Notes under the pieces: model-generated
Database searches by the model: none
Seen by the model: only the letters and a program-made list of their open reading frames with translations
What the model was told of the DNA's origin: nothing
Position numbers and translations under genes: made by a program
Shown here: positions 19,192-49,036 of the stretch, one piece after another
Layout: each line of letters starts with the position of its first letter
How positions within the stretch are numbered: the first letter of the stretch is position 1
Origin: an uncultured delta proteobacterium
GTDB taxonomy: Bacteria; Desulfobacterota; WTBG01; CAIYCZ01; CAIRTM01
DNA: 64,000 bases
Assembly: GCA_963718965.1 (NCBI GenBank)
Contig: CAVRBJ010000038.1
Span: 86,402 to 150,401, forward strand
Direction: 5' to 3'

Positions 19192-19221
19192 GACATAGGG
19201 ACGACCATACAGTGGGCAGCA

Positions 19222-22729: not shown

Positions 22730-23478
22730 ATTTTTAAAGCGCGGCTGCTGCGTCATGATCAGCGGCCGCAAAAAAGAACAGGTGGACAGTGAGGTTGAAA
22801 AAATTCGCTGAAGCTTACGGCAAAGATAAAGTTGCCGGCCACCCCTGCGAAATTACCAGCTATGAGCAGATACAGGCCCTGTGGGATGCTGCCGTTAAAA
22901 GCCTTCGGCACGGTTGACATCTGGATAAACAATGCGGGCGTTACCCACCCAACGCTGAATGTCAGGGAGCTGACACCCGCTGATATTAAAAATGTTGTCG
23001 ACACCAATATCACCGGTCTGATGTATGCAAACCAGATTGCCTTGCGTGGCATGACAGCTCAAGGGCATGGTTTTATTTACAATATGGAAGGCCACGGCAG
23101 CCATGATGAATATATTGCAGGGCTGTCGGTTTATGGCGCAACAAAACGGGCTGTTACCTATTTCACAAATTCGCTGCTGCATGGAGATCGATGGCGATAC
23201 GGTCAAGGCAGGACTGCTTTCGCCGGGAATCGTTATGACCGATTTTATCATTGATGAAATGCGCAAGCTGCCGCCGGATCGTTTTGAAACGGCAAAAATC
23301 GTCTACAACTGCCTTGCCGATACGGTTGAAACCGTGACGCCCTGGCTGGCTGAAAATATCCTGGCCAATGAGGAAAGCGGCAAAGAGATTGCCTGGCTGG
23401 ACACGGAAAAAGCCAATGAGCGTTTCAATTCCGATGAATACTGCAGCAGAGATCTGCTCAGTCAATTCGGGCTGTTAA
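22671..23478 (+). CDS. SDR family oxidoreductase, paralog 2 of 3; frameshifted about four times
   Basis: MKTIVITGSTRGIGHGMALEFLKRG..., ...VDIWINNAGVTHP..., ...VYGATKRAVTYF..., ...LSPGIVMTDFIIDEMRKLPPDRFETAKIVYNCLADTVETVTPWL... The ending ...LSQFGL parallels ...FTQHGL of paralog 3 if one base in CTGTTAA (23472-23478) is removed. Confidence 0.8.
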
Positions 23479-23502
23479 TTAATCTACTATTTGGGGGTAT
23501 AT

Positions 23503-24312: not shown

Positions 24313-24324
24313 GGTATTTAAACA

Positions 24325-24343
24325 TTGACAATAAAGATGTCAA
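24325..24343. promoter_or_regulatory. Palindrome TTGACA-N7-TGTCAA upstream of the MFS gene (candidate operator / -35 box)
   Basis: TTGACAATAAAGATGTCAA lies about 75 nt upstream of the ATG at 24418. The half-site is shared with the palindrome at 20198-20213. Confidence 0.3.
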
Positions 24344-24417
24344 CAACATAAACTTTGCAAAATTGAAATCCTAGCATAAACAGTTATTTTAAAACAACCA
24401 TTAACAAGGGAGGGAAA

Positions 24418-30692: not shown

Positions 30693-32057
30693 ATGTACTG
30701 TATGAACGCCAAAAAACACAGCATGTTGCTTGCAGTACTGCTTTTTTCAGCCAGCATCTGTTCCTGCGGCACAGGAGCCCGTGCAGCTGATGCTGTATCT
30801 GCTGATCCCGGAACTCCATCGAACGAGGCCAGTACTCCGACTGACGACGGCAGCTCGAATACCAGCTATACCGTTCAGCAGGGAGACTGCCTGGGGAAAA
30901 TTCTGCGTGAAATATTTAAGCTGCCAGAAGCAGTAATTTTCAGCCCCCAGACAGCCCTCTCCATTCAAAAAGCAAATCCGCATATACACAACCTCAATGC
31001 TTTGCAGCCCGGTGAAAAACTTTTTGTGCCTCCGGATATGCAGCAGCATATGCCCTCAAAGAACATGGTCCCTGATGCGGGGACACCCCCCCCGCCCTCT
31101 TACCCGGAACAGGCAGGCACACCTGTCTTCGTGCCGCAAAAAAAACAAAGCATCAAACAACAGCCTGCCACTGGTGACAACGGCAGCACACGCAATGATG
31201 CGCAATCAGAACAGGTCATGCACATTGCAACAGATGAAACAACTATCAAAGAAGATGCTCTCGCGAGTACAGACGCACTCCGTCATGAAAAAAACATCAG
31301 GCGCATGCTGATTGACTTCGTACATGCCTTTGGCGGCTATGACAATACAAGCTGCATGAAAACCCTGCCGATTGAGAACGGTGGAACTATTGTCATGGAT
31401 TGCAGTACATTCCCCGTATATGAATTTCCCTGGGGGGCAAGGATTATCATGGATTATGGTGACCACCTGCCTTCGCCGGTACGTAAAATGATCTCCGCGC
31501 AATGGAATGATACGGAAATCATCACCGCAGGCTACACTGAAAATGCTGAAACAATTTTTTCACGGGTGATCGACGGCTGCGGTCTGCTTAAAAACGAATC
31601 CGGCAATCGCTACACTGTCATTCGCGATACTATACAAATCAGTGTCAGCGGCAACTGGATTGTTCATAAAAACAATTCGCAAAAAAATATTTCTGTTATA
31701 TCAATTACACATGACGTGTGCCTCCCGGTTCCAGAAAGCCTGCAGGCATACCTTGCCGGCCTTGGCATCAATCTGCTGCAATTAAGCACGGTAGAAAAAC
31801 AGCGCACTGTAAAACCGGACCATTTTAGCCCTGAGTTCAAGGTTATACATCTGCAGGCAGATCCTGTGCGCATGACGGACATGATTCTTGAACTTATAGG
31901 AATAAAGCCCCAAAAAAATATTAAAACTAAAATCACGCCACAAAATGCGCGGGGCATAACATTTGAAGTAACAATCGATAGAAAATTTGAATTGGCCGGT
32001 AAAACCTGCTTTATTGACTTTAAAAATCTGTCCGCCAACATAGCCTCATATGCTTAA
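30693..32057 (+). CDS. Secreted LysM domain-containing protein (454 aa)
   Basis: A signal-like N-terminus is present (MNAKKHSMLLAVLLFSASICSCG). The LysM-like segment is YTVQQGDCLGKILREIFKL...LNALQPGEKLFVP. I did not recognise the rest. Confidence 0.6.
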   Translation: MYCMNAKKHSMLLAVLLFSASICSCGTGARAADAVSADPGTPSNEASTPTDDGSSNTSYTVQQGDCLGKILREIFKLPEAVIFSPQTALSIQKANPHIHNLNALQPGEKLFVPPDMQQHMPSKNMVPDAGTPPPPSYPEQAGTPVFVPQKKQSIKQQPATGDNGSTRNDAQSEQVMHIATDETTIKEDALASTDALRHEKNIRRMLIDFVHAFGGYDNTSCMKTLPIENGGTIVMDCSTFPVYEFPWGARIIMDYGDHLPSPVRKMISAQWNDTEIITAGYTENAETIFSRVIDGCGLLKNESGNRYTVIRDTIQISVSGNWIVHKNNSQKNISVISITHDVCLPVPESLQAYLAGLGINLLQLSTVEKQRTVKPDHFSPEFKVIHLQADPVRMTDMILELIGIKPQKNIKTKITPQNARGITFEVTIDRKFELAGKTCFIDFKNLSANIASYA

Positions 32058-32328
32058 TAATAATGGTAACAAAATACTCCAAATAGATTTAAAAACAGAT
32101 AATTACATAAATTTAATTCATGAATTACTCGATTTCTGCGCAGTCCAAAACAGCTCTTCCCCTGCACATTTCCAGTACGACCAATCTGAAAAAGCATCGA
32201 TAGAGGTAAGCATACCGGGATTTTTACTTCATACTAAATACGGTGATTTTTTATTAACAAATATTGAAATTGATAAAAATATATTAATTTTTCTATCAGA
32301 TATTGATGTAAAAACTGTTAAATTTTAA
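32050..32328 (+). CDS. Hypothetical protein (92 aa), low-GC
   Basis: The ATG overlaps the stop of the LysM gene (ATGCTTAA). Composition is much more AT-rich than the neighbours. I recognised no family. Confidence 0.35.
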   Translation: MLNNNGNKILQIDLKTDNYINLIHELLDFCAVQNSSSPAHFQYDQSEKASIEVSIPGFLLHTKYGDFLLTNIEIDKNILIFLSDIDVKTVKF

Positions 32329-32592
32329 ATTTTGATTATAATTAAAAATAATATAATTATTATTATTTTATAAAAATTAATTTATTAATATAATAGAAAG
32401 CTATCTATGTTGTAGCAAAAAAGGTGTAAAGTTTGTTTAGGGCATAACCGATACATTCATTGTAAAGCAAAAAACCTGTCGAACATACAGAAACAGATTG
32501 AATACAGGGTTCTCGTAATCAGGCTTAAAATCTGTCGGCAGAAATACAAAAGTACGTGCAGACGGATAATGAATGTTACAAGGAGATTCAGG

Positions 32593-32793
32593 ATGCCCGA
32601 CGAAATAATGGACATCAGAAGTGCTGCAAAGTACCTTCAAATTAAAGAACGTACACTGTACCGTCTTGTTGGTGAAGGTGAGATTCCTGGAATAAAAGTC
32701 GGTGGCCAATGGCGTTTCAGCAAAAAATGTCTTGAAGGCATGTTTGCAAACGAACCTAAAAAGATTTTTCATGTTGAGCGTGTAACACAATAA
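32593..32793 (+). CDS. Helix-turn-helix (excisionase/MerR-superfamily, HTH_17-like) DNA-binding protein
   Basis: The ATG at 32593 follows AAGGAG. The sequence is MPDEIMDIRSAAKYLQIKERTLYRLVGEGEIPGIKVGGQWRFSKKCLE. Confidence 0.7.
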   Translation: MPDEIMDIRSAAKYLQIKERTLYRLVGEGEIPGIKVGGQWRFSKKCLEGMFANEPKKIFHVERVTQ

Positions 32794-32936
32794 ATCCTTT
32801 ATTTTTTAAACACGAAGCCGTCAAAGCCCCTCCCTTTTCAAGCCCTCCATATTAAATCTAAATGCTATCCAGTACTGTAATTTTTCCAACAGCATGCGAG
32901 TATTTCATAAACTACTTAGCAGGCTAAAGATTCCCC

Positions 32937-32965
32937 TTGACATTGATTTAAAGTTTGGGTAATCT
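32937..32965 (+). promoter_or_regulatory. Candidate sigma70 promoter in the AT-rich spacer ahead of the flavoprotein cluster
   Basis: TTGACA (32937-32942), N17, TAATCT (32960-32965). It lies about 300 nt upstream of the start at 33280, so the assignment is tentative. Confidence 0.25.
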
Positions 32966-33279
32966 TTTTATGAAAAAAATATACATATATATTTTGAACT
33001 AATGGCTTTATTCAACGGTGCCGGCTCACTACATACAATACGACAGCTATATGATTCTATATACCTATGCTTAACACTGGTCAGCCTCACCATAAAAAAA
33101 TATCCTGAAAAACCCGATTAAAGGATATCTATCGTACGTATTTCCCGATACATGCAAACAACAAAAACATATGCCGACAGACCAAAAAGAACTATTGCTT
33201 TTAACCCTGTTAAATATTAAATTTAAAAATTACAACCGGCAAAAACCAACAGTTATTTAAATCACACGTGGAGAAGCAT

Positions 33280-34764
33280 ATGAGCACAGCAGCAACATCG
33301 TTAAAGAGCATCATCGATGCCGTGGCAGGCGTTGTTGGAGCGCAGAATGTCAGCACAGACATCGACACCCTGAAGCAGTACTCAAAAGATACGAGCCTCA
33401 TGCCTGCACGCATGCCTGACATGGTCGTCAGAGTTCTCAACCGTGAGCAGCTCATGGGTGTCTTGAAAATCGCTAATGAGCACCGCATTCCCGTTGTACC
33501 GCGCAGCTCCGGAACCGGCACCTACGGCATCGCCATTCCTCTTGAAGGCGGCATTATTGTTGATCTGTCGAGCATGAAGCGCATCCCGCGCATCGATACC
33601 CGCAATCGCTGGGCACTGATCGAAGCTGGTGTCACGTTCGGTGAACTACGCGATGAGCTGGCAAAACAGGGCATGCAGGCACTGAATACACTGCTGCCGC
33701 GCAAGGACAAGTCTGTCATATCCAGTGTGCTTGAGCGTGAGCCGGTGCTGGCTTGTAAGACTGAATGTGATGAGCCCCTGAGAACCATGGAATTCGTATG
33801 GGGAACGGGCGAGCTGATGAGAACCGGCGCAATGTCTGTGGACTCAATGCCTCCGGAGGAAATTCCCAACAAAACATCCTCCGATCTCTGCTCGGTCGGC
33901 GGCCCCGGCATTGACTGGTGGAGGCTCATGACAGGAACGCAGGGAACCTTCGGCGTCATAACGGTCATGAATGTAAAAATTTTCCACAAAGCTCTCCAGC
34001 AGAAGGTTGTTATTCTAACCTTCAATAACCTTGAAGACCTGGTAAAACCCCTGTATGCTATTCAGCACCGTGAAATCGGCCACGAGTGTTATGTTCTGAA
34101 CAACTACGATGTTGCGGCGATCCTTGCCGACGAAGACAAGGAAATTGCAAATCTTGCCAAGAAAATACCGCCTTATTGTATCGTTCTAAATCTCTGGGGC
34201 GGTCAGTTTTTTCCCGAGGAAAGAATCGCCTATGAAGAAAAGGCTGTCAACGAAATAGCCGACCAGTATCAATTTTCAGTTGCCAATGGCCTTTCCGCCA
34301 TACCCGATGCAAATAAGCGCCTTGAAAACATGCTGGCCACCCCCTGGGAAGGCGATATATACTGGAAAGACCGCTATGCAGGCGCATGCCTTGAGCTTGT
34401 ATTCGAGGCCGGCCTGGACAAAATTCCCGCATACTGGAAAGTATTCACCCAGCTTGCCGGCGAATATGGCATCGACACCAAGACCCTTGGCCTCTATATT
34501 CAGCCTCGCCAGCGCGCGCGCGTCTGCCATGTTGAATTCCACATTCCCTGCGATCCCAATGGCGCAGACCTTGCAGCTGTCAAAACATTCCATCGCAAGG
34601 CGGCCGAAGCCGTGATGAATGCGGGCGCGTTCTTCTACCGCCCCTACTATGACTGGTCTGAAATGATTTTCGCCCGCTCAGGCTATTCATTTGAAGCGAT
34701 CAAAAAAATCAAAAACATACTCGACCCGAACCATACCCTCAACCCGGGCAGAATGGGTCTGTAA
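33280..34764 (+). CDS. FAD-binding oxidoreductase (FAD_binding_4, VAO/GlcD/GlcE type), copy 1 of cluster (intact)
   Basis: The ATG at 33280 follows GGAG. ...PDMVVRVLNREQLMGVLKIANEHRIPVVPRSSGTGTYG...IIVDLSSMKRI...AGVTFGELRDEL... The family-typical C-terminus is ...IKKIKNILDPNHTLNPGRMGL. Confidence 0.85.
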   Translation: MSTAATSLKSIIDAVAGVVGAQNVSTDIDTLKQYSKDTSLMPARMPDMVVRVLNREQLMGVLKIANEHRIPVVPRSSGTGTYGIAIPLEGGIIVDLSSMKRIPRIDTRNRWALIEAGVTFGELRDELAKQGMQALNTLLPRKDKSVISSVLEREPVLACKTECDEPLRTMEFVWGTGELMRTGAMSVDSMPPEEIPNKTSSDLCSVGGPGIDWWRLMTGTQGTFGVITVMNVKIFHKALQQKVVILTFNNLEDLVKPLYAIQHREIGHECYVLNNYDVAAILADEDKEIANLAKKIPPYCIVLNLWGGQFFPEERIAYEEKAVNEIADQYQFSVANGLSAIPDANKRLENMLATPWEGDIYWKDRYAGACLELVFEAGLDKIPAYWKVFTQLAGEYGIDTKTLGLYIQPRQRARVCHVEFHIPCDPNGADLAAVKTFHRKAAEAVMNAGAFFYRPYYDWSEMIFARSGYSFEAIKKIKNILDPNHTLNPGRMGL

Positions 34765-34817
34765 TAAGCAGGCATAGGCATAACAAGGTTTGCAACCAAT
34801 TACTATAGGAGACAACA

Positions 34818-36519
34818 ATGGCTTTCAATGAAATAGCTCTCAAAGCATTACAGGACGTGGTTGGCGAAGAAAACGCCTCGACAGACAGGGTACTGTGTCA
34901 GGCCTATTCCCGCGTACAATGGACTGCTGACGGCTGCATTCAACGCAATGAAATGAAGACCTCCATGCGGCCCGACTGCATCGTGCTGCCTTCCTCCACA
35001 GAGGAAGTGCAGTCCATCTACAAACTTGCCAACCGCTACGACTTCATCGTCATACCCCGCGGCACCGGCATGATCAACGCGGCTTTTGCAAACCCGACGC
35101 AGCGCATGATCGGAAAACCCATCTGCATTATTGATCCCAAGCGCATGGATAAAGTCATTAAGGTCGATGCCAACAATATGTATGCGGTCATCGAGCCCTA
35201 TGTCTGCTTTGCCGCTCTGCAGGCAGAAGCAATGAAGGTCGGCTGCATGGCCCCTTCACCCCCTGCAGGCTCGCAGATATCGGCCCTTGCAAATATTCAG
35301 TGGCATGGCGCCTACGGCAACTCCTGGCTTTCAGGCCTTGGCGCCAATCAGCTTCTGTCTTTTGAGCTCGTACTTCCCAATGGCGAGTTGCTCAAAAGCG
35401 GCTCCATCGCTCAGCAGGGCCCTGAAGAAGACTGGATATGGAACGATGGCCCCGGCCCTGATCTTCGCGGTTTTTACCGCGGCGCACAGTTCGGCCATGC
35501 CGGCGGCATGGGCATGGTGACAAAAATTTCCACACGCCTTTTCCCCTGGCCCGGCCCGACTGTTTTCCCGACAAACGGCAATGCCATTGAAAAAGAATCC
35601 CATTTCACCAAAGATAAGATTCGCTGGTACATGATCGACGTGCCCGAAAAAATTAAAGAGTACCCCAAATTCGAAGCAGAACAGCTCCGCTGGTCCTGCG
35701 ACCTGCACTACGAAATCGCCAGGGCTGAGCTTGCTATTGTTGTGCAGCATAATGCCAAGCAGTTCATGATGACCTGGGCGGCGCGCAGCAAGGAAGAATT
35801 CCATAAGGGCGCCAATGAAGAATTCTTTCCCCGCGGCTACAATGTCGTAGCTCTTTCTTCGCTGACCTCCCTTGAGCAGCTCGAATATGAAGAAAAGGTT
35901 CTCAAGTCGATCGTAGCCAAAATGGGCGGTTCATTCCTGTCAGAAGAGTCCAAGGATCCCATGGACCGCGAGCGGTATAATGTCCTGGATGCGCATTACC
36001 AATGACTGGATCACGCACCGGCCATTCAATGAGACTGTCGCGGCCCAGCGACTGCTTCCATCAGGGCACGGCATGCCTCGACTCGATCGATGCGGTCACC
36101 GATGAAATCCTGCGTGCAAACACACCAGCAGCGAAAAGAGCTTGTCGAGCAGGGCAAAGGCAAAGACCTGCTTCCGATCAGCTTCTACGGCGGCTGGATC
36201 AGCCCCATTGAAAAAGGCTATGGCGCTCTGATGACAACCGACCTGTGGCCCGAGCAGGAACCCGAGAAAGCCGCTCAGGCAATTCAGCTGCTGTTCGGCT
36301 CGCTGCATGGGCATGCTTGCAACCAAAAGCGCAGGCGCTACGGTCTGCCTGCTTGGACCAGCTTATGACCTTCTTGGACCGCAGTTCTATAATGTGCATC
36401 TTATGGTTAAGGCGATGAAGCGTGAGTTCGATCCGAACAATATTTCCAATCCGCCGTATGCTACCAGTCCTGACGTTGTTAATCCGAAGCAGCTTAGTGA
36501 ACTCACAAAAGTTCTGTAA
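34818..36519 (+). CDS. FAD-binding oxidoreductase (FAD_binding_4 type), copy 2; frameshifted three or more times in the last third
   Basis: ...PDCIVLPSSTEEVQSIYKLANRYDFIVIPRGTGMINA... is intact to 36005. The C-terminal part is spread over frames 36002-36211, 36090-36368 and 36307-36519. It ends ...VKAMKREFDPNNISNPPY... Confidence 0.75.
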
Positions 36520-36576
36520 TGTTAACAGGAGACAGCGAACAAACTTAATTGCATGAAAGGAGCACTATAATGTCTG

Positions 36577-37573
36577 ATGAATATGGGAACAATTGAAAAA
36601 ATCATGATGACCAAGCCTTTCAAGGTTTTCGACAGCCACGGGCATCCGGGGCTTGAGAAAATAGGCATTGCCGACCGCCCCGGCTGCATCGATTTCTGGT
36701 GCGGCAATACGGTCGTGTCACGCTCCATGATGGGCGCCCGCGCTTTCCTTGGCGACCCCAACCCCTTCAGCTTCATCACCAAGGCTGAAGAGTGCCCCAA
36801 TATGACCCCCGAGGTCTTTATCCAGTACATGGATATGGCAGATGTCGAGGCCATGTGCCTGCAGTGCATTCACGGCATCACCGATCCGGCCCCGGGCTAT
36901 CCCAATGGCTGGAAATGGTATGTGCCCAATGAATATGTCAAGAAGACCTTTGTCGATGCCTTCCCCGGCCGCTTCACCGCAGTCGGCGGCGTGCATGCCC
37001 GCTACGGCCAGCAGGCGGCCGTTGAAATGGTCATTTCCGCCAAGGAAAACGGCTTCCCGGGCATAAAGATTCATCCGCCCACGATCGGCTACCCGAACAA
37101 CCCCGATCTGTATCCCGCGTATGCCAAGTGCGAAGAGCTGGGGCTGCACGTGCAGATTCACACGGGCGTTGAAGAGCTGCCCGGGCACGCGCGCCAAGTA
37201 TCAGCATCCGGTGTATGTGGATGATGTTGCCATGGATTTCCCGAAACTGAAGATCCTGCAGCTGCACTGCGGCGTGTTCAACAACCCCATGATGGGCCTG
37301 TGGAACGTGATGAAGCATGACAATCTCTACACCGACATCACGATCCCCCACCCGACGCTCATGCAGTTCAAGTACTACTGGGATATGGATCATATGCGGT
37401 TCCTTGAATTCTTCATGCCCGACAAAGTTTTCTACGGCACGGATTTCCCGCTCACGCTGCCGTGCTACGGCGCCATGGTCAGCAATATCATGACCATGCC
37501 CCTCTCCATGGAATTCAAGCACAAAATCATGGGCGATAATTTCAGAAAATTCATCAGCTGGGAAAGCAAGTAA
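36577..37573 (+). CDS. Amidohydrolase-2 (metal-dependent hydrolase/decarboxylase, ACMSD/LigW/LigI-like) family protein; one frameshift near 37190
   Basis: The N-terminal metal motif is FDSHGHPG. ...FPGIKIHPPTIGY...LGLHVQIHTG... continues in 37121-37573 (...PKLKILQLHCG...FYGTDFPL...). An RBS-linked ATG at 36570 in another frame suggests a further shift at the very start. Confidence 0.8.
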
Positions 37574-37671
37574 GCCGGCAGGGAGCTGAATCTGATGCGG
37601 AATCTGAAACGACATTTTCTCACGCTGCACTTGAACCGGAATTCGTTAAATAAAACCGGCTGATTGTTAAA

Positions 37672-37709
37672 GGGTGTTCGACGTCACAGTACGACGAACA
37701 CCCTTTTTT
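37672..37709 (+). terminator. Intrinsic terminator splitting the flavoprotein cluster into two transcription units
   Basis: GGGTGTTCGACGT, loop CACAGT, ACGACGAACACCC, then TTTTTT. Confidence 0.75.
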
Positions 37710-37784
37710 CTATGACTACAACGGAGCATCATGCTCCAGAAAAAAATTAAGAGGTTTAACTACACTAAACTAAGGGAGTTTACT

Positions 37785-38178
37785 ATGGAACTGAATCTCA
37801 AGAAATGGGAAGCCTACATGCAGCAGGATCCGGCGCTACAGGACCGGTTGCAGAGGATTAATCCCCAGGGCTATCCGGCCACCAGAAAGGGCGACCTGCT
37901 GTGCCTGAAAGCAGGCAAGAGGTCCATCGTCGTGAGCTGGAATGGTAAGCAGCTCAGTGTCGAGTCGCGGGAACCGAAAAAAGTTTTTCTCTCATGGAAT
38001 CTCGGCGAGAAAAAATTCAATGAGCTGTTTCTTATCCGGCACAACCCCTCCGGTCCTTGTGGCTATGAACAATGACCAGGCAAACATCAAGGCTGAAGCA
38101 GACCACCACAATGGTTCGCTCATAGTCAGCTTTATGGTTATGCTGCAGGAGTGCAATGAAGGAGGTGCCCGCACATGA
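37785..38178 (+). CDS. SCP2 (sterol-carrier/lipid-binding)-like small protein; one frameshift near 38050
   Basis: The start is MELNLKKWEAYMQQDPALQ... The tail after the shift, ...FNELFLIRHNPPVLVAMNNDQANIKAEADHHNGSLIVSFMVMLQE, fits the SCP2 C-terminal pattern (G-K-hydrophobic-K-hydrophobic-x-G-D ... hydrophobic helix) only loosely. The stop overlaps the next start (ATGA). Confidence 0.45.
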
Positions 38179-39452
38179 AAAGTTTCTTTACTGATTTCGA
38201 GCCAGTAAAAACGCTGAAGCCCAAAAGCGCTGCAGAAGTACAGGAAATCATCAGGAAGGCCAATAAGGACAAGACGCCTCTTGTACCGATGAGCTCCGGC
38301 AAAAACATGCAGGATACGCATCTGCCCACGGTAAAGGGCGCAGTTGCCGTTGACCTGTCAGGCCTCAAGGGCTGCTACTTTGACGCTTTAAACCGCAATG
38401 CAACGGTTGAACCCGGCGTCACATTTGCCGACCTTGAAAAGCAGTGCGCCAAGGCAGGGCTTCGCACACTCACAAGTATTGATGTCCCCAGAGATGCATC
38501 AGTTCTTTCAACCTATCTTGAAATGATGCCGCTTGTATCAGTGGCCAAAGTATCACCCCTGGGAAATGCTCACCATGGAGGGATACCGGGCGGATGGCGA
38601 GCGTTTCGCAACCGGCCAAATGGCTATGGTTCAGGACCGTCCGGACAAATACTCCTGGGGCGTATCATTCGCCATGGTGGCACGTTTATACTGCATGGCA
38701 CAGGGAACTCTTGGCATCATCACCAAGGCAGCCGTAACGCTGAAAGCCGCCTTGCCTGAGGCAGAGGTTCTGTATTATCCCTGCTCCACATCAACCAGGC
38801 GACACAAGCACTCAAGGCATTCCTTTTCACCGAGGAACCGCATGAAATTTTTGCCGTCAACAAAACCTATCTGGCTGAACTGCTGGGGGAAAAAGCATCA
38901 AAAGATATGCCCGCCTGGACAGTTGTTGTCGTAAACCGCGGTGCAGACAAAGCGGAAATCAGCTATAAGAAGCAGGATGCCGCAGACATAGCAAAGCGCA
39001 TCGGCGGCTCGCTCATCACAGCTGTGAAGGGTGTAAAGAATTCTTCAAGGACAATTCTTGCTGAAATAGCCTCTCCGACAGGTGCTCCGCTGCACAAAAA
39101 CGGCAAATGCTGGGCTCCCATTGTGAGCATAGCTACTGCCGAGCAGATAGCTGCTGTATCGGGATCAATCCCCAAAGCAGCGGGCTCGATTCTGATGCCT
39201 CTGCAGGCAGGCGGCTGCTTTTATTATCAGCCAGATCTTCGCTACGCCGAAGGCGATATCGTGAAAACCCGTAAAGAGTATGTCGCCATTTGCGAAAACA
39301 TGCTCAAAACAGGCATGCTCTTTCCCCGACCCTCGGCACTGATTGCCAAACAGGTTGCCAAACAGTATCCTGATAATTTCAACGTGCTGAAAGACATCAA
39401 AAAGGCCGTTGATCCCAAGAATATCATGAACCCCGGAAAACTGGGACTTTAA
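38175..39452 (+). CDS. FAD-binding oxidoreductase (FAD_binding_4 type), copy 3; frameshifted two or three times
   Basis: ...LKPKSAAEVQEIIRKANKDKTPLVPMSSGKNMQD...AVDLSGLKG...PGVTFADLEKQC... The middle part is in 38533-38934 (...AQGTLGIITKAAVTLK...). The C-terminus in 38907-39452 ends ...LKDIKKAVDPKNIMNPGKLGL. Confidence 0.75.
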
Positions 39453-39465
39453 GGAGGTGATAGCC

Positions 39466-40614
39466 GTGACGAGAGAAGAACTGCTCGACAAATCTTTACA
39501 CTGCAACAGATGCGGCACCTGCCGCGGCGTTACCCAGGATGTCATCCCTGATGTGGCTTTTGCCACACAATGCCCCTGCGGCTCGACTTTTTATGGCTGC
39601 TATGAGCCCTCAGGCCTTATGTATATGGCACGGGGCATAGCCATGGGTAACCTGAAATGGAACGATGATCTTGCAAAAGTTCTCTATTCCTGCACCATGT
39701 GCGGCTACTGCGACGATTTCTGCCAGCGCGGATATCGCCATACCCCTGCCATAGAAATTCTTGAAGAACTGCGCAGGGATATACCGCAAAAGCTGAAGCC
39801 GAAATCACTGCAGAAAGCAACCGAAAGCCTCAATATACCTAAGGGACAGAAGCTTGCAACCCTTGCTGCCTATGGTATCACGGATATCGCTCCGGGCAAA
39901 AAGGCCGACACTGTTTTCTTTCCCGACAATACGCTCATGCTTAATGCTGCAAAGCTCAAAGAAATAGGTTTTCTTATCAGCAAGAGCGGTAAAAAAGTCA
40001 GCTGCTTCATCAGCGAACCTCTTCCGCCTGTAAGCGCAACACTTGTTTTCGGCGGCTGCGATGATGCACTGGCTGCCTGCATGGCTGAAATCGATGACCG
40101 GCTTGAAGACGCGGCAGTAAAAAAAGTTCTTGTGTATAATCCCGAAAGCCTGTCAGTTCTCAAGCGCAACAGCAAAGCCGGCGTAGAGTTCATCTCCATG
40201 ACGAGCTTCTATGCAGGTTTGCTCAAAAGCAAAAAATACAAAAAACTCAAAATGCCTGCTGTCACCTATCAGGATCCCTGCCACCTTGGACGCTACTCAA
40301 AAGACTACGCAGCTCCGCGTGAAATTATTGCAGCCCTGGGGTTGAAACTCAATGAAATGTGGCGCTCAGGAAACAATTCTCTGTGCTGCGGCGCAGGCGG
40401 AGGCGTTTTGGCCGGCAATCCGGCGCTAGCAAAGAAATATGCTGAGAACCGTTGGCATGAAGCCAAGGCTACCGGCGCCAAAGTCATGATCACTGCCTGT
40501 CCCTACTGTCTTGCAAATCTCTCCGGCGCCAGGCCCAAGGATTTCAAAACGGTCGACATCACTTCGCTGGTGGCGCAGGCTTACGGCTTCACAGGAAAGG
40601 AGGGCGGCAAGTAA
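39466..40614 (+). CDS. (Fe-S)-binding protein with two CCG domains (GlcF/HdrD-like), intact
   Basis: The GTG at 39466 lies 8 nt after AAGGAGG. Motifs are CNRCGTCRG, CTMCGYCDDFC, ...YQDPCHLGRY..., ...LCCGAGGG... and ...TACPYCLANL. Confidence 0.85.
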   Translation: MTREELLDKSLHCNRCGTCRGVTQDVIPDVAFATQCPCGSTFYGCYEPSGLMYMARGIAMGNLKWNDDLAKVLYSCTMCGYCDDFCQRGYRHTPAIEILEELRRDIPQKLKPKSLQKATESLNIPKGQKLATLAAYGITDIAPGKKADTVFFPDNTLMLNAAKLKEIGFLISKSGKKVSCFISEPLPPVSATLVFGGCDDALAACMAEIDDRLEDAAVKKVLVYNPESLSVLKRNSKAGVEFISMTSFYAGLLKSKKYKKLKMPAVTYQDPCHLGRYSKDYAAPREIIAALGLKLNEMWRSGNNSLCCGAGGGVLAGNPALAKKYAENRWHEAKATGAKVMITACPYCLANLSGARPKDFKTVDITSLVAQAYGFTGKEGGK

Positions 40615-42137
40615 TGAAAGAACAAGATATCATTAAAGGCTTAAAAAGGATCGTTGGTGCCGACTGGGTGCGCTCAGACGAGCTCAGCCGTTTTCATAAC
40701 GGCGCTGATGTGCTCACGCATTTCGGCCAGGGCGCTTTGTATCCAGAGAATCATCCCGTTGCGGTTGTCATGCCCGGTTCAACCAAAGACGTGCAGGCAG
40801 TGGTAAGGTTTTGCAACAAAAACAGCATCCCTCTCTACTGCGTCGGCGGAGGAACAGTTCTTTTGATCGGCTCCATTCCCGGCAAACCCGACATGGGCAT
40901 CATCTTTGATTTTCACCGCATGCAGAAGGTGACACTAGATAAAGACCGCCTTGTCGTTCGTGCTCAACCCGGTGCGACAGGCCTCCAGGTCAGTCAGCTT
41001 GTGCGCAATCAGCAAATCGGCTATCGGCCCTACTTCGGCGGCAGCCCCGGCACATCACTGTTCGTGCCCTATCAGGTATTTACCGGCCAGAATAAAATGG
41101 CAGGCTATCTCGACGGCATGGGCATCAACTGTGTTGCGGGAATGGAAATGATACTTCCGAGCGGTGAAATCGTCCGCACGGGCTCCATGATGAATCCGAA
41201 GGCTCCAGGCTGGCCCCATGGCCCCGGCCCTGCCCTTACGTATCTGCCTTTTTTCTCTAATGCAGGGTATGGCGTTGTTACTGAAATGGAGTTCCGCTGC
41301 TTTTCAACACCTAATGAAAACGCCTCTCTCTGGGTTACGTTCAAGAGCCTGGCTGTTGCCTGCAAGGCAATGAATGCAGTTATCAGAAGCGAGTATGCCT
41401 GCGGCGCTACGGTCATGGGCCCCGGCTGCTGGACACATGCTCTCTACTCCTCTCAGCACTGGCAGGAAGGCGCCCATTTTGTCAAGGGCACGCAGGACAT
41501 CAATCTCATCGGGATGTCATTTCGCGGCTCCAAGCGCAAGGTTGATTATGAGCGCAAGGCATGCATAAAACTTCTTGAAAAGCACGGCGGTACGGTTATG
41601 CCCTCATGGCTTGTTGCCATTCTTGATGGTCATGAGGCAAATGCAGCAGGCTGGCAGCAGTGCAACAGCCCCAAAATATGCGGCACGCTCAACGGCAAGT
41701 CAAATTCCGGCGGCATTTTCGTTTCCGGCGGCGTGTTCGATCAGATGAAGCAGCTTGAGGACTATATGCGCCTTGGCATGGCTGAGTATCAGGATGTATG
41801 TCGCAAGAACCCTGAATTCCTGAACCATCCGCATCCCACAATTCGCCTCTACGCAAGCTGCGGTCAGACCTATCTTTCCATGGGCGGACATGCAAATGCC
41901 GCAGGCGAAGTTATTTTCGTTCTCGACTATGCAAGCCGTCAGTTTCTGCCCATGATCGGCGAAATCAAGGGTCGGTTCGACAAGCTTATGAAGGATATCG
42001 GCATGGCGCCTCTGGGCGTTGGTCGTGACGGCCGCACCTGGACTGAATGCCACGATCATTTCGAAGTAGCAAAAATCATCAAAAAGACTGTGGATCCAAA
42101 TGGCTTCATGGCTCCAGGTGTTGCTTTCCCGCTGTAG
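40614..42137 (+). CDS. FAD-binding oxidoreductase (FAD_binding_4 type), copy 4 (intact)
   Basis: The start overlaps the stop of the Fe-S gene by 1 nt. ...PVAVVMPGSTKDVQAVVRFCNKNSIPLYCVGGGTVLLIG...IFDFHRMQKV...PGATGLQVSQL... The C-terminus is ...AKIIKKTVDPNGFMAPGVAFPL. Confidence 0.85.
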   Translation: MKEQDIIKGLKRIVGADWVRSDELSRFHNGADVLTHFGQGALYPENHPVAVVMPGSTKDVQAVVRFCNKNSIPLYCVGGGTVLLIGSIPGKPDMGIIFDFHRMQKVTLDKDRLVVRAQPGATGLQVSQLVRNQQIGYRPYFGGSPGTSLFVPYQVFTGQNKMAGYLDGMGINCVAGMEMILPSGEIVRTGSMMNPKAPGWPHGPGPALTYLPFFSNAGYGVVTEMEFRCFSTPNENASLWVTFKSLAVACKAMNAVIRSEYACGATVMGPGCWTHALYSSQHWQEGAHFVKGTQDINLIGMSFRGSKRKVDYERKACIKLLEKHGGTVMPSWLVAILDGHEANAAGWQQCNSPKICGTLNGKSNSGGIFVSGGVFDQMKQLEDYMRLGMAEYQDVCRKNPEFLNHPHPTIRLYASCGQTYLSMGGHANAAGEVIFVLDYASRQFLPMIGEIKGRFDKLMKDIGMAPLGVGRDGRTWTECHDHFEVAKIIKKTVDPNGFMAPGVAFPL

Positions 42138-42154
42138 CAACAGTCGATAGACAT

Positions 42155-42191
42155 AAAAAAAGGCCGGTGATTCAATCACCGGCCTTTTTTT
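42155..42191. terminator. Bidirectional intrinsic terminator after the flavoprotein cluster
   Basis: AAAAAAA, GGCCGGTGA, loop TTCAA, TCACCGGCC, TTTTTTT. Confidence 0.8.
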
Positions 42192-42230
42192 ATTACTCTG
42201 TATCTGTACTGTGCTACTTTGTTTTGCATA

Positions 42231-42781
42231 CATGGTTCGACCCTTTGACTGATCGACAGGCTCACAGTTCAGGACTCACCATGAACGGAATATCCATGTA
42301 ATTATGGTTATAAAACCGTTCGCAATAAGCTTGTCGAAGGATGAACGGCCCTTTTGCGGAGGATTATTAACATGGTGCATAGTACAGGCATTAAGTATGA
42401 TCTTCAGGAAAAGCTTATTTTAATTATTTTTTGACTTAAATTGATAAATAGATTAAATATTTAATCAGTTCGGGTTTAGTACCCTCGCAGCTAGAGCAAT
42501 TTAAGCTTAAGGTGGCCTTTGCTGCTTCCTTAGCGAACCCCGGCCCGTACGCTCTGAGCCTCTCGAAAGTTGCACGGGAAAAACCTGATGCCCTTTTGCA
42601 CTTTCATGGTTCGACAAGCTCATTACGATCGGAAATGGAAGCTGCCACAAAATATTGAAAACAGTTCCAGGTGTCATCACAACCTTAACTTGCGCTAGCC
42701 GCGCATCCAGTCATTTCGTCGTATGCCGGACGCCTGAACAAAGAAGACTGGATACCGGATCAAGTCCGGCATCACGAAATG
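42231..42781. repeat. Non-coding tract dense in imperfect inverted repeats and a recurring GTCGAAC(C)ATG-type motif
   Basis: CATGGTTCGAC occurs at 42231 and 42605, and its near-complement GTCGAAGGATGAA at 42333. The hairpin CCGTTC...GAACGG spans 42316-42348. The segment 42316-42343 is about 80 percent identical to the reverse complement of 42605-42632. A long hairpin pairs CATTTCGTCGTATGCCGGAC (42712-42731) with GTCCGGCATCACGAAATG (42764-42781). No ORF is present. Confidence 0.45.
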
Positions 42782-42845
42782 TTTTCAATACCCCGTCCGC
42801 ATACGGCGAGATGCTTTATTAATACAGTATGGTGTGTTGAGAACT

Positions 42846-45800
42846 ATGAAGCTGTTCACGCCAAAAGTATGGTTAAAAAAATGCTCGCCTAATTTTGGCA
42901 TCGGGCAAAGTCTTATTTGGTCAATACTGCTTTTCGGTTTGTTTATTTCGATAGGTACCGGGGCTATTCAAAGCTATTTTGATTATCAAAAGGAACTGGC
43001 GGTACTTGATCAAAACTTATCAGATATTGAGCATACACACTTTCCATCAATTATAGAAAATGTATGCTCAAAAAATACTGGTTTACTAATCAAGCAAGCA
43101 TGCGCCATTAAAAATATCCGCCATATTGTGCATGTAACTATCAATGACGGACAAAATGAACTGGCTTTTGCCGGAGAAATTTCAGGCAGGCGACTGATCA
43201 GCCGCCACTATCCAATAACTTGTTTTTATGACAAAGCTACAAGACAAACAGGCCTTCTGACAGTAACAGCCAGCGCCGATGGCATTATTTCCGCTTTCAA
43301 GAATTCCTTTTTCAAAATTCTTATCCGCGATGCAACAAACACCCTGCTGCTTGCAGGTGCAATTTTTCTGTGTTTCCATTATTTCTTCAAGCGTCGTGTG
43401 AAAGCACTTATTTCCTACCTTCAGGCACTTTCAGAGCAACAGTTCCAACAGCCTCTTGCTCTCAGGCGCAGACGCAGAAAAAAGCCTGATGAGCTGGATG
43501 CAGTAACTGCTTCAATAAATACCGTGCGGGAAAAGCTGCTGTCCTGCTGTGCGCAATTGGACGAAAAACAGCTGCACATAAACACCCCTGAATCCGTGCT
43601 GTCGCAGGTGCTGCACTCGATCCCCCTGTCAATTTTCTGGAAAGACTCACAGGGCGTCTATCTCGGCTGCAATAAAAAATTTTCTCTTTTGGTCGGTCTT
43701 GAATCACCTGATCAAATTATTGGAAAAACCGATGTCATTCTGAACTGTGCGACAGAAAAAGCCGAGCAGCTCCGGGTATTGGATCGGAAAGTCATTGAAA
43801 AAAAACAGACGCAGCATATCGTTCAACAGCTGCGAATGCCCTCTGGGGCACCGCAATGGCTGGATATTACCCTGGTGCCGCTTATCAATGAGGCAGGTTC
43901 AAGCTATGGCGTTCTCGGGCTTATCGCTGATATTAACGAACAGAAACTGGCGCAGGAAAGCCTGCGCCAGAGTGAGCAGCGTTTTCGGAGTTATTTCGAA
44001 CTGCCGCTTACCGGTATTGTCATTACTTCCGTTGAAAAAAACTGGCTTGATGTTAATGAGCGTGCATGCTCAATACTGGGCTATACAAAAGAAGAACTCC
44101 TGCAAAAAACATGGTCGTCAATGACACACCCGGATGACCTTGCCGTCGATGTTGAAAAATTCAATCTAATGCTTGCATGGGGCAATTGATCAATATGCCA
44201 TGGAGAAGCGCTTTATACGAAAGGATGGCAGCATTGTATATGTAAACCTGGCTGTCGGCTGCGTGCGCACTACAGACGGTTCCGTTGACTATGTTGTTGC
44301 GCTTTTTGACGATATATCCGGGCAAAAAAAATCACAAAATGAGCTTGTCATGCTGTCTGCCGCTGTTCAACAGGCACACGAAATTATCATCATTACAGAT
44401 ATGCAGGCTGTTATCCAGTATGTTAATCCGGAATTCACCCGCATTACGGGCTATAGCAGCCAGGAGGCCATCGGGCACACACCCGCGCTGCTGCGCAGCG
44501 GAAAGCATGATGAAATTTTCTACAAAATGCTCTGGTCAACGATTGTGCAGGGTGCAGCATGGCGCGGCAGATTTGTTAACCGAAAAAAAAATGGCGAGCT
44601 CTATGATGAGGAAGCCGCCATTTTTCCCATACGCAGCGCAGCAGGAATCCTTACAAACTATGTTGCCGTCAAACGTGACATAACCCATGATCTCAAGATT
44701 GAGCAGCAGTTGCGGCAGGTTCAAAAAATGGAAGCAATCGGAACGCTTGCCGGAGGTATCGCCCATGATTTCAATAATATTCTTGGCGTTATTTACGGCT
44801 ATGCCGAAATGTCCATGGACCCTGCGGAAACAATGCCGCAGATAAACAGCAATCTCCATCAGCTCATCAGCGCGGCAAACCGCGCAAAAGATCTCATACG
44901 CCAGATTCTCACCATCAGCCGGCAGACGGAAAAGGAGGCCCTGCCGGTGACAATCTCTCCTATCATCAAGGAGGTCATCAGATTCATACGCGCCTCACTG
45001 CCCTCAACAATACAGATAAAGCAGGCACTGACTGCAAAAAACGACCTGATTCTTGCCGATCCGATACAGATACACCAGCTGCTTATGAATCTGTGCACAA
45101 ATGCCGGCCACGCAATGAAGGATTCAGGCGGCGTTCTTGAAATCAGCCTTAAAAACCTTTACTTCAGCGATGAGGATGTGCGGGAATTTCCTTTATTGAA
45201 AAGCGGCGATTATATTTGCCTGTCGGTTCACGACACGGGTTGCGGCATATCAAACAGTAATATGGAGCATATTTTTGAGCCGTATTTTACGACAAAAGAA
45301 CCCAGCGAAGGAACCGGACTTGGCCTGGCTATGGTGCATGGTATCGTGCGTAAATGCGGCGGCGATATCAGGGTCTATAGCGATGTCGGTAAGGGTTCGC
45401 AGTTCAATATTTATCTGCCGGTCATAGCAAGAGAGTCCGAGAATACCATCGAAACAGCCACGGAAATTCCACGGGGCACAGAGCATATATTATTTGTCGA
45501 TGATGAAATAGCGCTGGTAAAAACAAGCAAAATAATTCTTGAGCGTCTCGGCTACACGGTCACAGGCATGACAAGCTCAGAGCAGGCGCTGGCTTTATTC
45601 AGGAAGTCGCCGGATGCATTTGAGCTTTTAATAACGGATAAAACCATGCCTGAGCTATCGGGGTTTGATCTCATGCAGGCGATTAAGTCTCAGCGGCCGG
45701 ATATGCCGATGATTCTCTGCACGGGCGTAAGTGTCAAATCGGATATTGAAAAAATTCGGGAGATGGGTATCAATGCATTTGTTTTGAAGCCCTTCAACAA

Positions 45801-45873
45801 ACAAGAGCTTGCCTGCATAATCAGAGATGTTCTGGATCATAGACATGTGCCGGAATGGGCTGAGAAAACCTGA
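42846..45873 (+). CDS. Hybrid sensor histidine kinase/response regulator (TM, PAS x3, HisKA, HATPase, REC); one frameshift near 44180
   Basis: The N-terminus has two hydrophobic spans and PAS modules follow. The H-box region is ...LAGGIAHDFNNILGVI... The ATPase boxes are ...NLCTNAGHAM...DTGCGI...GTGLGLAMV... The receiver is ...ILFVDDE...LLITDKTMPELSG...KPF... The fragments are 42834-44189 and 44173-45873. Confidence 0.85.
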
Positions 45874-45895
45874 AAAAAGCCTGCTGCACAAACCA

Positions 45896-46906
45896 CTATA
45901 CCAGGAACTGCTGCAGCCGGGACTCCATCTCTTCATAGTGGAAAAGCCTGCCGAAATCCATAAGGCCGGACAGGGCACGAGAGTGAACCCTGAACCCGCT
46001 CTCCTCGAGAATTGAAACCGGATTTAAACCGCCGATCACGATGGCGCCCGCACGGCCTTCGCTCACCGGAATATCCAGAAGCGGCTGGCCGGGGCGGCCG
46101 ATACACATGAATGCGCCAAGGCCCGCCTTTTCAAGCTTCTCAGCAATTGTCTCTACCATATCTCTGCTTTCTGCGGGAAACTCCCTGAACCCGACTCCGA
46201 TACGGCCATTGCCGGTTTTGATAGCGCCGATATAGTTGGTCATGCCGCTGCGGATAAAAATCTCTAGGGGGTCAATGCTCGTGCCGTCATACATGATGAT
46301 CTCGACAAACCGCACGGGCTTCTTGTCGCGCAGTTCCAGCACTCCGCCAAAACGCGAATTTGTGGGAATGCCGTGCTGCAGCAATACGCCGTTGAGAGTA
46401 ATCGAGCAGACAGTGCAGATCCCGATCATGCCCTCAGGTACGGTCAGCTGACCAATGCGCTCACCGGGAGCAAGAAAAGTAATCAAATTGCCCATGGCAT
46501 AGCCATCGGCATACACTTTCTGCATCATGGGAAGACACTCGGCAACCTGACGCGGATCCGCCAGCGTCGTATTCACAACAAGCTTTCCGGTTCGATTGGC
46601 AAGGTTGAAATTCATACGATAGGTCATCTGGTCTATTTTCGCGGAAAGAAAGCCGACGCGCTCAATCGTCTTGCTTGACTCGAATTCAGACAATCCAAGC
46701 TCGGTAATGCGATGGCAGCACTTATCAGTTTTTTCGATCAGCCCAGCATCAAACATTTCCTGCAAATAGAGCCTTACGGTGCGCTCGCTTATTTCATGTC
46801 CTTGCGACAAAAGCTCCTGGGCTATTTTGGAGCTGCGCATGGGCTTTTCAATATCTTTGATTATGCTTAAAATAGCATTTTTTTTCTTTGCAGCTTTTTC
46901 ATGCAT
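45896..46906 (-). CDS. nrpR: NrpR-like regulator (winged HTH plus one DUF128/NRD domain)
   Basis: Intact 336-aa ORF. ...ILSIIKDIEKPMRSSKIAQELLSQGHEISERTVRLYLQEMFDAGLIEK...ITELGLSEFESSKTIERVGFLSAKIDQMTYRMNFNLANRTGKLVVNTTL... matches the N-terminal architecture I know from methanogen NrpR (HTH, then an NRD beginning ...RVGF...). It is divergent from gdhA. Confidence 0.75.
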   Translation of the reverse strand: MHEKAAKKKNAILSIIKDIEKPMRSSKIAQELLSQGHEISERTVRLYLQEMFDAGLIEKTDKCCHRITELGLSEFESSKTIERVGFLSAKIDQMTYRMNFNLANRTGKLVVNTTLADPRQVAECLPMMQKVYADGYAMGNLITFLAPGERIGQLTVPEGMIGICTVCSITLNGVLLQHGIPTNSRFGGVLELRDKKPVRFVEIIMYDGTSIDPLEIFIRSGMTNYIGAIKTGNGRIGVGFREFPAESRDMVETIAEKLEKAGLGAFMCIGRPGQPLLDIPVSEGRAGAIVIGGLNPVSILEESGFRVHSRALSGLMDFGRLFHYEEMESRLQQFLV

Positions 46907-47199
46907 TCCGGCAAAACCTCACAGTCTCAATTGCAGCAAAAATTAATATACTACTGCCGATTTTTATAACATCACAATAACGGTTTTTGAAGGTTAACAA
47001 ATATTATATGGCTAATCAAACATTTTTTAAAAAAAAGTACTTTATCTGAATTGTCGATAATTGGCAAAAAATCCTATCGTAAAAAAAAAATATGGCATTT
47101 TTGCCAAATAATAAAGCTAAAATTTTAACAATTATATGCTAACCATTCAAAATAAATTGACTATTTACAGTATTACTGTTACATATATCAAAGTTAGCA

Positions 47200-48742
<1,543 letters not shown>

Positions 48743-48758
48743 TCAGTTTAAGCACGGG

Positions 48759-48790
48759 AAGCCCCTTCGTCAGCGAAGGGGCTTTTTTTT
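48759..48790 (+). terminator. Intrinsic terminator after gdhA
   Basis: AAGCCCCTTCG, loop TCAG, CGAAGGGGCTT, then a T-run. Confidence 0.8.
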
Positions 48791-49036
48791 TACAGCTACC
48801 TTTTCGGTTCAACCGGTAAAAAACCTTCCAGCATAAAATTCCACCCTTTTCAGCAAATTTCGACACTCATACCATGAAGCACTAAGTCAACAAACACCCT
48901 GTTGGTGTTGGTTTTCATTAATACCAAACATGACTGCATAGTCTATATCTAGTATGCGTTTGGACTTGACACACCATATGTTTTTTATCTATACTTCAAG
49001 ACAAGAAAATTCAAAAAAACTTTGAAGAGATTGAAT

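Follow-up and report, generated by a model that had tools for sequence, protein, structure and literature searches.

The 64,000-nucleotide stretch of DNA examined here, called the window below, comes from an uncultured delta proteobacterium of the Desulfobacterota (GenBank assembly GCA_963718965.1, contig CAVRBJ010000038.1, positions 86,402 to 150,401 of the forward strand). A listing of open reading frames (ORFs) and a Pfam scan of the window place a block of seven co-directional genes at positions 33280-42137 (+), arranged as two transcription units. The two units are best read as one soluble enzyme system other than a glycolate or lactate dehydrogenase, namely a multi-flavin/iron-sulfur (Fe-S) oxidoreductase combined with a (de)carboxylase, which would act on a hydrophobic, probably aromatic substrate, and the frame breaks seen in several of the genes are taken in this reading as sequencing errors. 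The probability of the reading as a whole could be put at about 0.5.

Layout and conservation of the block

The block follows the order A, B, amidohydrolase in the first unit and SCP2-fold protein, A′, Fe-S protein, B′ in the second, A and B denoting two types of flavoprotein. Pfam finds four FAD_binding_4 domains across it, one Amidohydro_2 domain, and one protein with CCG and Fer4_8 domains, as well as a small protein without domain match, and no transmembrane segment is predicted in any of the proteins. Three of the seven genes (1, 6, and 7) are open reading frames in the window. A GGAG ribosome-binding site precedes the ATG of gene 1; the stop codon of gene 4 and the start codon of gene 5 overlap as ATGA at 38175, and the stop of gene 6 and the start of gene 7 overlap by one base (TAATG at 40614). 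An original prediction, made by a model from the letters of the window, had named the seven genes, the terminator between the units, and both overlaps, all of which can be read in the sequence. It had also treated the seven genes as continuous; the domains were found as expected, but four of the seven frames are broken by insertions or deletions (indels) that it did not report. An exact look-up of the CCG protein and the last flavoprotein (gene 7) returned no identical gene on record, and no description of the seven-gene combination was found in the literature. The features of the block, with protein lengths in amino acids (aa), are as follows:

33280-34764 (+): gene 1, type-A VAO-fold flavoprotein, 494 aa, intact
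34818-36519 (+): gene 2, type-B VAO-fold flavoprotein, ~565 aa, frame broken in the window
36570-37573 (+): gene 3, Amidohydro_2 metal enzyme, ~340 aa, frame broken; ATG start at 36570 or 36577
37669-37709 (+): terminator or attenuator in the gap between genes 3 and 4, hairpin of -21.1 kcal/mol (z = -4.1) followed by a T-run
37785-38178 (+): gene 4, 130-aa orphan protein with a predicted SCP2 fold, frame broken
38175-39452 (+): gene 5, short type-A′ flavoprotein, 425 aa, frame broken
39466-40614 (+): gene 6, HdrD/GlcF-like Fe-S protein, intact; likely GTG start at 39466 after AAGGAGG (39457 in the ORF listing)
40614-42137 (+): gene 7, type-B′ VAO-fold flavoprotein, 507 aa, intact
42162-42191 (+): intrinsic terminator at the end of unit 2, GGCCGGTGAT-TCA-ATCACCGGCC followed by T7, -20.6 kcal/mol

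Conservation was scanned with one genome per species, which gave 32 loci: 19 spanning the region, nine truncated by a contig end, and four variants. All of them lie in metagenome-assembled genomes (MAGs) of uncultured Thermodesulfobacteriota or 'delta proteobacteria', whose habitats are lakes, soils, sediments, groundwater, and wastewater. Each of the 19 loci with a contig across the whole region has all seven genes in one order, and the nine loci cut by a contig end agree with this order. The flanks vary, no flanking gene family being widely common to the loci examined. The seven genes are the conserved unit because their order is kept in 19 of 19 loci while the flanks differ.

The gap between genes 3 and 4 contains a hairpin and T-run in 18 of 23 loci, and the stems vary in sequence yet still pair. 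The five exceptions form one subclade with a gap of only 62-71 nucleotides. Both the conservation of the block and its division into two transcription units by a terminator, as originally predicted, are therefore upheld. A TTGACA-type -35 element lies 5′ of gene 1 in several loci, and a scan for sigma-54 promoters ahead of genes 1 and 4 was negative. Owing to a stem mismatch, both real terminators escaped the generic scanner for promoters and terminators. A small palindrome, GGAGCATCATGCTCC, is located at 37723-37737, between the terminator and gene 4. Two other loci (L004 and L009) have it too, with compensating changes, and it may act as an operator or form an RNA hairpin. A perfect palindrome, ATGAGTGCACTCAT, occurs ~60-80 nucleotides 5′ of gene 1 in loci L017-L020, L024, and L034, where it overlaps the -10 element of the TTGACA-type promoter. 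It is a candidate repressor operator and is not present in the window's own region upstream of gene 1.

Indels were called against the closest relative (L004), which shows 88-91% nucleotide identity and is syntenic over 30697-48837. Gene 2 has four single-base insertions (35984, 36013, 36122, and 36306), genes 3 and 4 have one each (37183 and 38035, respectively), and gene 5 has an insertion at 38533 and a single-base deletion at 38789. Read in the frame of the relative, the seven proteins are 92-97% identical to their counterparts and contain zero stop codons. The ratio of non-synonymous to synonymous substitutions (dN/dS) is 0.04-0.12 at a dS of ~0.36, in broken and intact genes alike, a sign of strong purifying selection; gene 1 is 97% identical to its ortholog with a dN/dS of 0.04, the corrected gene 2 is 96% identical and stop-free with a dN/dS of 0.05, and the corrected gene 5 is 95% identical. 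Flanking conserved genes are likewise split by single-base insertions at 32046 and 44178, and long-read MAGs of four relatives (L009, L013, L033, and L034) have breaks at different positions. From these sequence comparisons, the frame breaks of the block are almost certainly assembly or sequencing errors and not gene decay, because the corrected genes are stop-free and their dN/dS is the same as that of the intact genes. The interruption of four of the seven frames could also be explained by a block of pseudogenes decaying in this genome. This is hardly credible in view of the low dN/dS of the corrected genes, of the indels that split the flanks and many other ORFs of the window as well, and of the different positions at which the long-read relatives are broken.

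Frame-breaking single-base indels, mostly insertions, are found throughout the window outside long homopolymers. They split a 559-aa ORF (30693-32328), a hybrid sensor kinase gene (42834-45873), and the ORF pairs at 3330-4811, 12304-13690, and 23067-25693, and the window looks like an unpolished long-read assembly. Selenocysteine read-through of the stop codon at 36003-36005 was considered and rejected, since the single-base insertion at 35984 accounts for this stop.

Properties of the encoded proteins

The four flavoproteins (genes 1, 2, 5, and 7) match FAD_binding_4 (PF01565) with 57-73 bits against a Pfam cut-off of 26.4, FAD being flavin adenine dinucleotide. Gene 1 (69 bits) has the FAD-oxidase_C motif at its C-terminus, as has gene 5 at its end; FAD_binding_4 is the sole Pfam domain of gene 2 and reaches 70.7 bits in gene 7. 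In profile-profile comparison, gene 1 pairs with gene 5 (E = 3e-39) and gene 2 with gene 7 (E = 2e-22), whereas the cross-pair values are 1e-10 to 1e-17 and those to Escherichia coli GlcD are weaker (1e-8 to 2e-11). By these sequence profiles, the four proteins, first described as mutually divergent paralogs, rather fall into two pairs of paralogs: genes 1 and 5 (type A) and genes 2 and 7 (type B).

None of the four approaches an NCBIfam equivalog. Their scores for the GlcD equivalog TIGR00387 (54-72 bits) are far under its cut-off of 568, and they do not match GlcE (hhalign probability of 1-9% to the E. coli protein; ~21 bits for NF008439 against a cut-off of 284). The motif H-x-G-D-G-N-x-H with a downstream E-H-G forms the metal and substrate site in GlcD, D-lactate dehydrogenase (D-LDH), and D-2-hydroxyglutarate dehydrogenase. 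In global profile alignments, which carry some uncertainty at such low identity, the GlcD form of this motif (HAGDGNMH...EHG) is kept in none of the four, and at most its first histidine is kept, in genes 2 and 7. Matches of the four proteins to solved structures cover the FAD domain only (E = 1e-9 to 1e-17), with VAO/EUGO/PCMH and D-LDH matched about equally. The AlphaFold2 model of gene 7, the one flavoprotein modelled, has a predicted local distance difference test (pLDDT) value of 69.5 and shows a full two-domain VAO fold of FAD and cap domains. Over ~520-560 aligned columns, it matches D-LDH, VAO/EUGO/PCMH, and AGPS about equally, with template modelling (TM) scores of 0.65-0.76 and 15-19% identity, and mouse D-LDH is the single best fold match. 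At such identity, the cap domains align too unreliably to locate the Tyr/Tyr/Arg phenolate-binding triad and the covalent flavin attachment residue of the 4-phenol-oxidising VAO/PCMH subgroup. Judged by the HMM (hidden Markov model) scores, the profile comparison, and the motif check, none of the four flavoproteins belongs to GlcD, GlcE, or D-LDH. Annotation pipelines often name gene 2 homologs 'glycolate oxidase' and some fragments 'photosystem II stability/assembly factor-like', both of which are misleading labels.

Gene 6 scores 61-67 bits for CCG (PF02754) and 25-26 bits for Fer4_8. It contains two ferredoxin-type cysteine motifs, a first CCG domain that is degenerate, its cysteines being lost, and a second CCG domain that is complete, of the pattern CXnCCGXmCXXC. 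Residues C271, C306, C307, C344, and C347 and both ferredoxin motifs are kept in 23 of 23 sequences, and this cysteine set suffices for two ferredoxin clusters and one CCG cluster. With 40 bits for NF008434 against a cut-off of 333, and with only one intact CCG domain, the protein is not of the GlcF type.

The intact ortholog of gene 3 matches Amidohydro_2 (PF04909) with 86.6 bits against a cut-off of 26.4, and all 14-20 orthologs compared keep its metal ligands (HxH, His, His, and Asp) unchanged; NCBIfam gave no match. A profile search of the PDB returned BB4693 (9e-10), ACMSD (5e-9), and LigW (1.6e-4), with weak margins and with the best match, BB4693, being itself uncharacterised, and no LigI-type match was obtained at E <= 0.01. 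ACMSD/LigW-type enzymes are reversible (de)carboxylases.

Gene 4 has no Pfam or NCBIfam match at E <= 1, intact orthologs included. Its homologs form 51 clusters, all at least 53% identical, and its profile matches seven clusters, all members of the family, among 1.84 billion representative proteins, with no bridge sequences to SCP2. A profile search against PDB sequences gave nothing. An assignment of gene 4 to SCP2 by sequence was therefore rejected, the Pfam, NCBIfam, PDB, and 1.84-billion searches all being negative. In the AlphaFold2 model, which is of high confidence (pLDDT of 90.7), the top Foldseek matches are UbiJ-SCP2 and the insect and rabbit SCP2 proteins (probability of 0.92-1.0, TM of 0.47-0.58), and the term 'SCP2-like' would be a statement about the predicted fold only. 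The family has an invariant polar motif, MNNDQKN...DHHNGS.

Part of what the original prediction had said about these proteins can be retained. The Amidohydro_2 assignment passes its threshold, and the flavoproteins do lie outside the GlcD, GlcE, and D-LDH families by HMM scores, profile comparison, and motif check. The SCP2 assignment fails the Pfam and NCBIfam thresholds and survives as a match of predicted fold. Given this predicted fold, the hydrophobic substrate that had been guessed becomes more plausible.

Variant and neighbouring gene clusters

Two variant loci (L039 and L040) lack gene 1 and have the order gene 3 (78% identity), gene 2 (67%), two genes for geranylgeranyl (GG)-reductase-like flavoproteins in the place of genes 4 and 5, gene 6 (64%), and gene 7 (59%). 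In loci of the L029 type, gene 2 (66%) and gene 7 (65%) are accompanied by an alpha/beta hydrolase and a different Amidohydro_2 protein. Because the orthologs of genes 2, 3, 6, and 7 recur jointly without genes 1, 4, and 5, the core of the system would consist of these four (B, amidohydrolase, Fe-S protein, and B′), and the type-A subunits (genes 1 and 5) and the SCP2-fold protein would probably be lineage-specific accessories.

One MAG that carries the block also has a separate, ordinary trio (L038) of an A protein of 495 aa, an Fe-S protein of 431 aa, and a B protein of 550 aa, which are 45%, 27%, and 51% identical to genes 1, 6, and 2, respectively. Ordinary modules of three genes in the same phylum share the A-FeS-B order of genes 5-6-7. 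GG-reductase-family flavoproteins are located near such modules in eight block loci, in L022, in L038 (four), in L039 (two, inside the cluster), and in the window itself at 1491-2617; their scores are under the family cut-off (86 vs 159 bits). At 2236-19545, L039 (JGI 3300041076) contains five FAD_binding_4 genes, two CCG genes, two GG-reductase-like genes, and one Amidohydro_2 gene, together with genes for an Fe-ADH, a Fe_bilin_red-like protein, and an AKR-ferredoxin fusion. This super-cluster shows that modules of this kind are extensively shuffled. A second cluster in the window (1491-7570, +) is made of building blocks as in the L038 and L039 variant clusters:

1491-2617 (+): GG-reductase-like flavoprotein
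3330-4811 (+): FAD_binding_4 protein, split
5103-6031 (+): CCG protein, split
6135-6731 (+): PNPOx-like protein
6728-7570 (+): SDR

The block is flanked in the window by genes for sensor kinases, an HTH_17 protein, an ABC transporter ATPase, an NrpR-like regulator, and glutamate dehydrogenase. The HTH_17 (excisionase-type) DNA-binding protein of 66 aa (32593-32793, +) is encoded just 5′ of gene 1, in a 1.2-kb AT-rich gap (32050-33270) with a GC content of ~0.40. The gene for the NrpR-type regulator (45896-46906, -) adjoins that for glutamate dehydrogenase (47231-48742, +), an arrangement kept in synteny in L004 and L009. NrpR proteins are known chiefly as nitrogen repressors in methanogenic archaea.

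Proposed function and comparison with described systems

The gene content, paralogy, conservation, fold, and motifs of the block are established by the comparisons above; the formation of a complex, the direction of electron flow, the class of substrate, and the roles of genes 3 and 4 are inferred. The VAO-fold subunits would remove hydride from a hydrophobic, probably aromatic substrate or perform other flavin chemistry on it. Electrons from the flavins would then reach the one intact CCG-type cluster of gene 6 by way of its two [4Fe-4S] clusters and move on to an acceptor, which could be a quinone or a protein or small-molecule disulfide. Gene 3, which by its weak profile matches is perhaps nearest to ACMSD and LigW, may remove a carboxyl group from, or add one to, the product or a precursor. 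Gene 4, translationally coupled to gene 5, might hold a poorly soluble ligand and deliver it to the lineage-specific type-A subunits, and the hairpin between the units might lower the expression of unit 2 or separate it from that of unit 1. The original prediction had routed the electrons to membrane modules such as a DsrMK-like pair at 12304-14485. This pair exists, but it lies on the opposite strand at a distance of 19 kb, and in other genomes the block has no linked membrane module; this part of the prediction is not supported.

Several points weigh against the proposed function. Substrate, product, and acceptor are all putative, and the complex is deduced solely from gene order, codon overlap, and analogy. 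The choice between a decarboxylase and a hydrolase for gene 3 depends on the weak profile matches described above, and the SCP2 call for gene 4 on a single structural model, whose TM scores are moderate (0.5-0.58), sequence comparison giving nothing in its favour. The model of gene 7 is likewise of moderate confidence, and its structural matches do not separate D-LDH, VAO/PCMH, and AGPS. The core set of genes was deduced from few variant lineages. In addition, transporter, CoA ligase, beta-oxidation, and aromatic-pathway genes are not linked to the block in the flanks of the loci, and the gene context hints at a substrate only through the patchy GG-reductase-like neighbours.

The absence of linked catabolic genes, together with the very strong conservation of the block proteins, would also fit the biosynthesis or remodelling of a membrane isoprenoid lipid or quinone, in which the SCP2-fold protein, like UbiJ/UbiT, would hold a polyprenyl intermediate for the flavoproteins and a ring decarboxylase. 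The fold of gene 4 is best matched by UbiJ-SCP2, that of gene 7 matches the ether-lipid enzyme AGPS about as well as it matches D-LDH and VAO/PCMH, and GG-reductase-family flavoproteins lie beside the block in eight loci as well as in L022, L038, L039, and the second cluster of the window. However, these flavoproteins score below the family cut-off and are not beside the block in most loci, and no prenyltransferase, methyltransferase, or lipid-synthesis gene is near it. The block is restricted to a narrow set of MAGs and is not a general trait, and the SCP2 fold is known in catabolic enzymes too, such as alkylsulfatases. We regard a lipid or quinone pathway as unlikely, although not negligible. 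Two copies of an ordinary glycolate, D-lactate, or 2-hydroxyacid dehydrogenase of the GlcDEF or Dld/LldEFG type are very improbable. Such enzymes would account for the label 'glycolate oxidase' that JGI pipelines give to many homologs, for the composition of two flavoproteins and a CCG protein, and for mouse D-LDH as the top fold match of gene 7. They are contradicted by the GlcD and GlcF scores far below cut-off, by the lack of a significant GlcE match, by the loss of the GlcD motif from all four flavoproteins, and by the single intact CCG domain of gene 6, and the SCP2-fold and Amidohydro_2 partners would have no role in such chemistry.

GlcDEF and LdhAB were the systems to which the original prediction likened the block, but the closest described system is a flavoprotein trio of anaerobic benzene degraders. 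When the sulfate reducer BzS1 is on benzene, about one fifth of its proteome consists of three proteins (Musat et al. 2026, PMC13416013). They are encoded by BzS1_12970/80/90 and comprise a FAD oxidase of 54.5 kDa that has both domains, an Hdr-like Fe-S protein of 46.5 kDa, and a FAD oxidase of 65.8 kDa that has the N-terminal domain only. NaphS2 and Desulfosarcina variabilis have distant homologs in synteny (23-42% identity), to which other functions are assigned (PMC13416013). For the orthologous 'Magic' proteins 24-26 of Ca. Anaerobenzenivorax ORM2a, a heterotrimer resembling GlcDEF is predicted (Toth et al. 2026, PMC13101534), in which cysteines of the Fe-S subunit are missing in two of four motifs (PMC13101534). 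The trios are the most abundant proteins in these benzene degraders and are candidates for oxygen-free benzene activation (PMC13416013, PMC13101534).

Genes 5-6-7 share with the trio the order of an A protein (FAD_binding_4 with an FAD-oxidase_C end), an Hdr-like Fe-S protein, and a larger B protein with FAD_binding_4 only. In both systems the Fe-S subunit is partly devoid of cysteine motifs; GlcDEF and VAO/PCMH are no more than distant relatives of either, and both systems are found in Desulfobacterota and are biochemically uncharacterised. The lengths are also comparable, with 488/431/577 aa in BzS1, 494 aa in gene 1, ~565 aa in gene 2, and 431 aa in the Fe-S protein of L038. The block differs in having a second A/B pair without an Fe-S gene, and its Amidohydro_2 and SCP2-fold proteins are mentioned in neither PMC13416013 nor PMC13101534. 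The block and the trio were compared by published description; the core clade of the trio is defined by at least 63% identity. Six GenBank accessions of the gene 2 family (one from a block and five from variant or paralog clusters) are not among the published top-100 BLAST hits of BzS1_12990; orthology is therefore unlikely, and the relation would be one of family architecture.

These likenesses in order, domains, degenerate cysteine motifs, and subunit lengths, as well as the reversibility of ACMSD/LigW-type (de)carboxylases, would be consistent with a functional analogue of the benzene-degrader trio, in which an inert hydrophobic compound is activated by unusual flavin/Fe-S chemistry with the Amidohydro_2 protein as a carboxylase. 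Beyond the missing BLAST hits, this is made quite doubtful by the other functions assigned to the distant homologs, by the CoA-ligase, CoA-transferase, beta-oxidation, and Bam neighbours that the benzene clusters have and the block does not, and by the origin of the host MAGs, which are from lakes, soils, wastewater, and sediments and not from hydrocarbon sites. A more specific version, still more of a long shot, would make the block the freshwater and soil counterpart of the candidate benzene-activating enzyme: a duplicated flavin/Fe-S machine that functionalises an inert hydrophobic molecule on an SCP2-fold carrier, with the ACMSD/LigW-like enzyme installing or removing a carboxyl group. If this were true, it would amount to a previously unknown oxygen-independent route of C-H activation or carboxylation.

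Under the preferred reading of a soluble flavin/Fe-S oxidoreductase with a (de)carboxylase, the block is of interest chiefly since the flavoprotein trio family is the current candidate for anaerobic benzene activation, and no member of the A-FeS-B family has been biochemically characterised so far. It represents an elaborated and strongly conserved form of the A-FeS-B plan, with two A/B pairs, one Fe-S protein, a (de)carboxylase-like enzyme, and a protein of lipid-carrier fold, and this plan occurs in many uncultured Thermodesulfobacteriota of non-hydrocarbon habitats. It also offers a defined set of partners and natural variants, in which a putative core of genes 2, 3, 6, and 7 is kept and the type-A and SCP2-fold accessories are swapped for GG-reductase-like flavoproteins elsewhere, and these could guide the biochemistry of the whole family. 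If the function turned out to be ordinary hydroxy-acid oxidation, the value would be limited to a better annotation of proteins mislabelled 'glycolate oxidase'.

Other described systems resemble parts of the block. E. coli GlcDEF is likewise an oxygen-independent dehydrogenase of two VAO-fold flavoproteins and a CCG Fe-S protein; the block differs from it in gene order, in the missing His/His/Glu active-site motif of GlcD, in HMM scores far below the cut-offs, in the unmatched GlcE, and in having one intact CCG domain. The VAO/PCMH family of 4-phenol oxidoreductases (VAO, EUGO, and PCMH), whose members act on hydrophobic aromatic substrates, is among the best sequence and fold matches for the block flavoproteins. 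These enzymes are, however, homo-oligomers or flavocytochromes without a CCG partner, and their sequence match to the block is confined to the FAD domain. Gene 4 shows no detectable sequence similarity to SCP2 and UbiJ-UbiT, and its motif is not known in SCP2, whereas it resembles them in predicted fold, in its size of ~130 aa, and in having flavoprotein partners, as UbiJ has. Gene 3 is like the ACMSD/LigW branch in scoring above the Pfam threshold, in its invariant ligands, and in having ACMSD and LigW among its best solved relatives.

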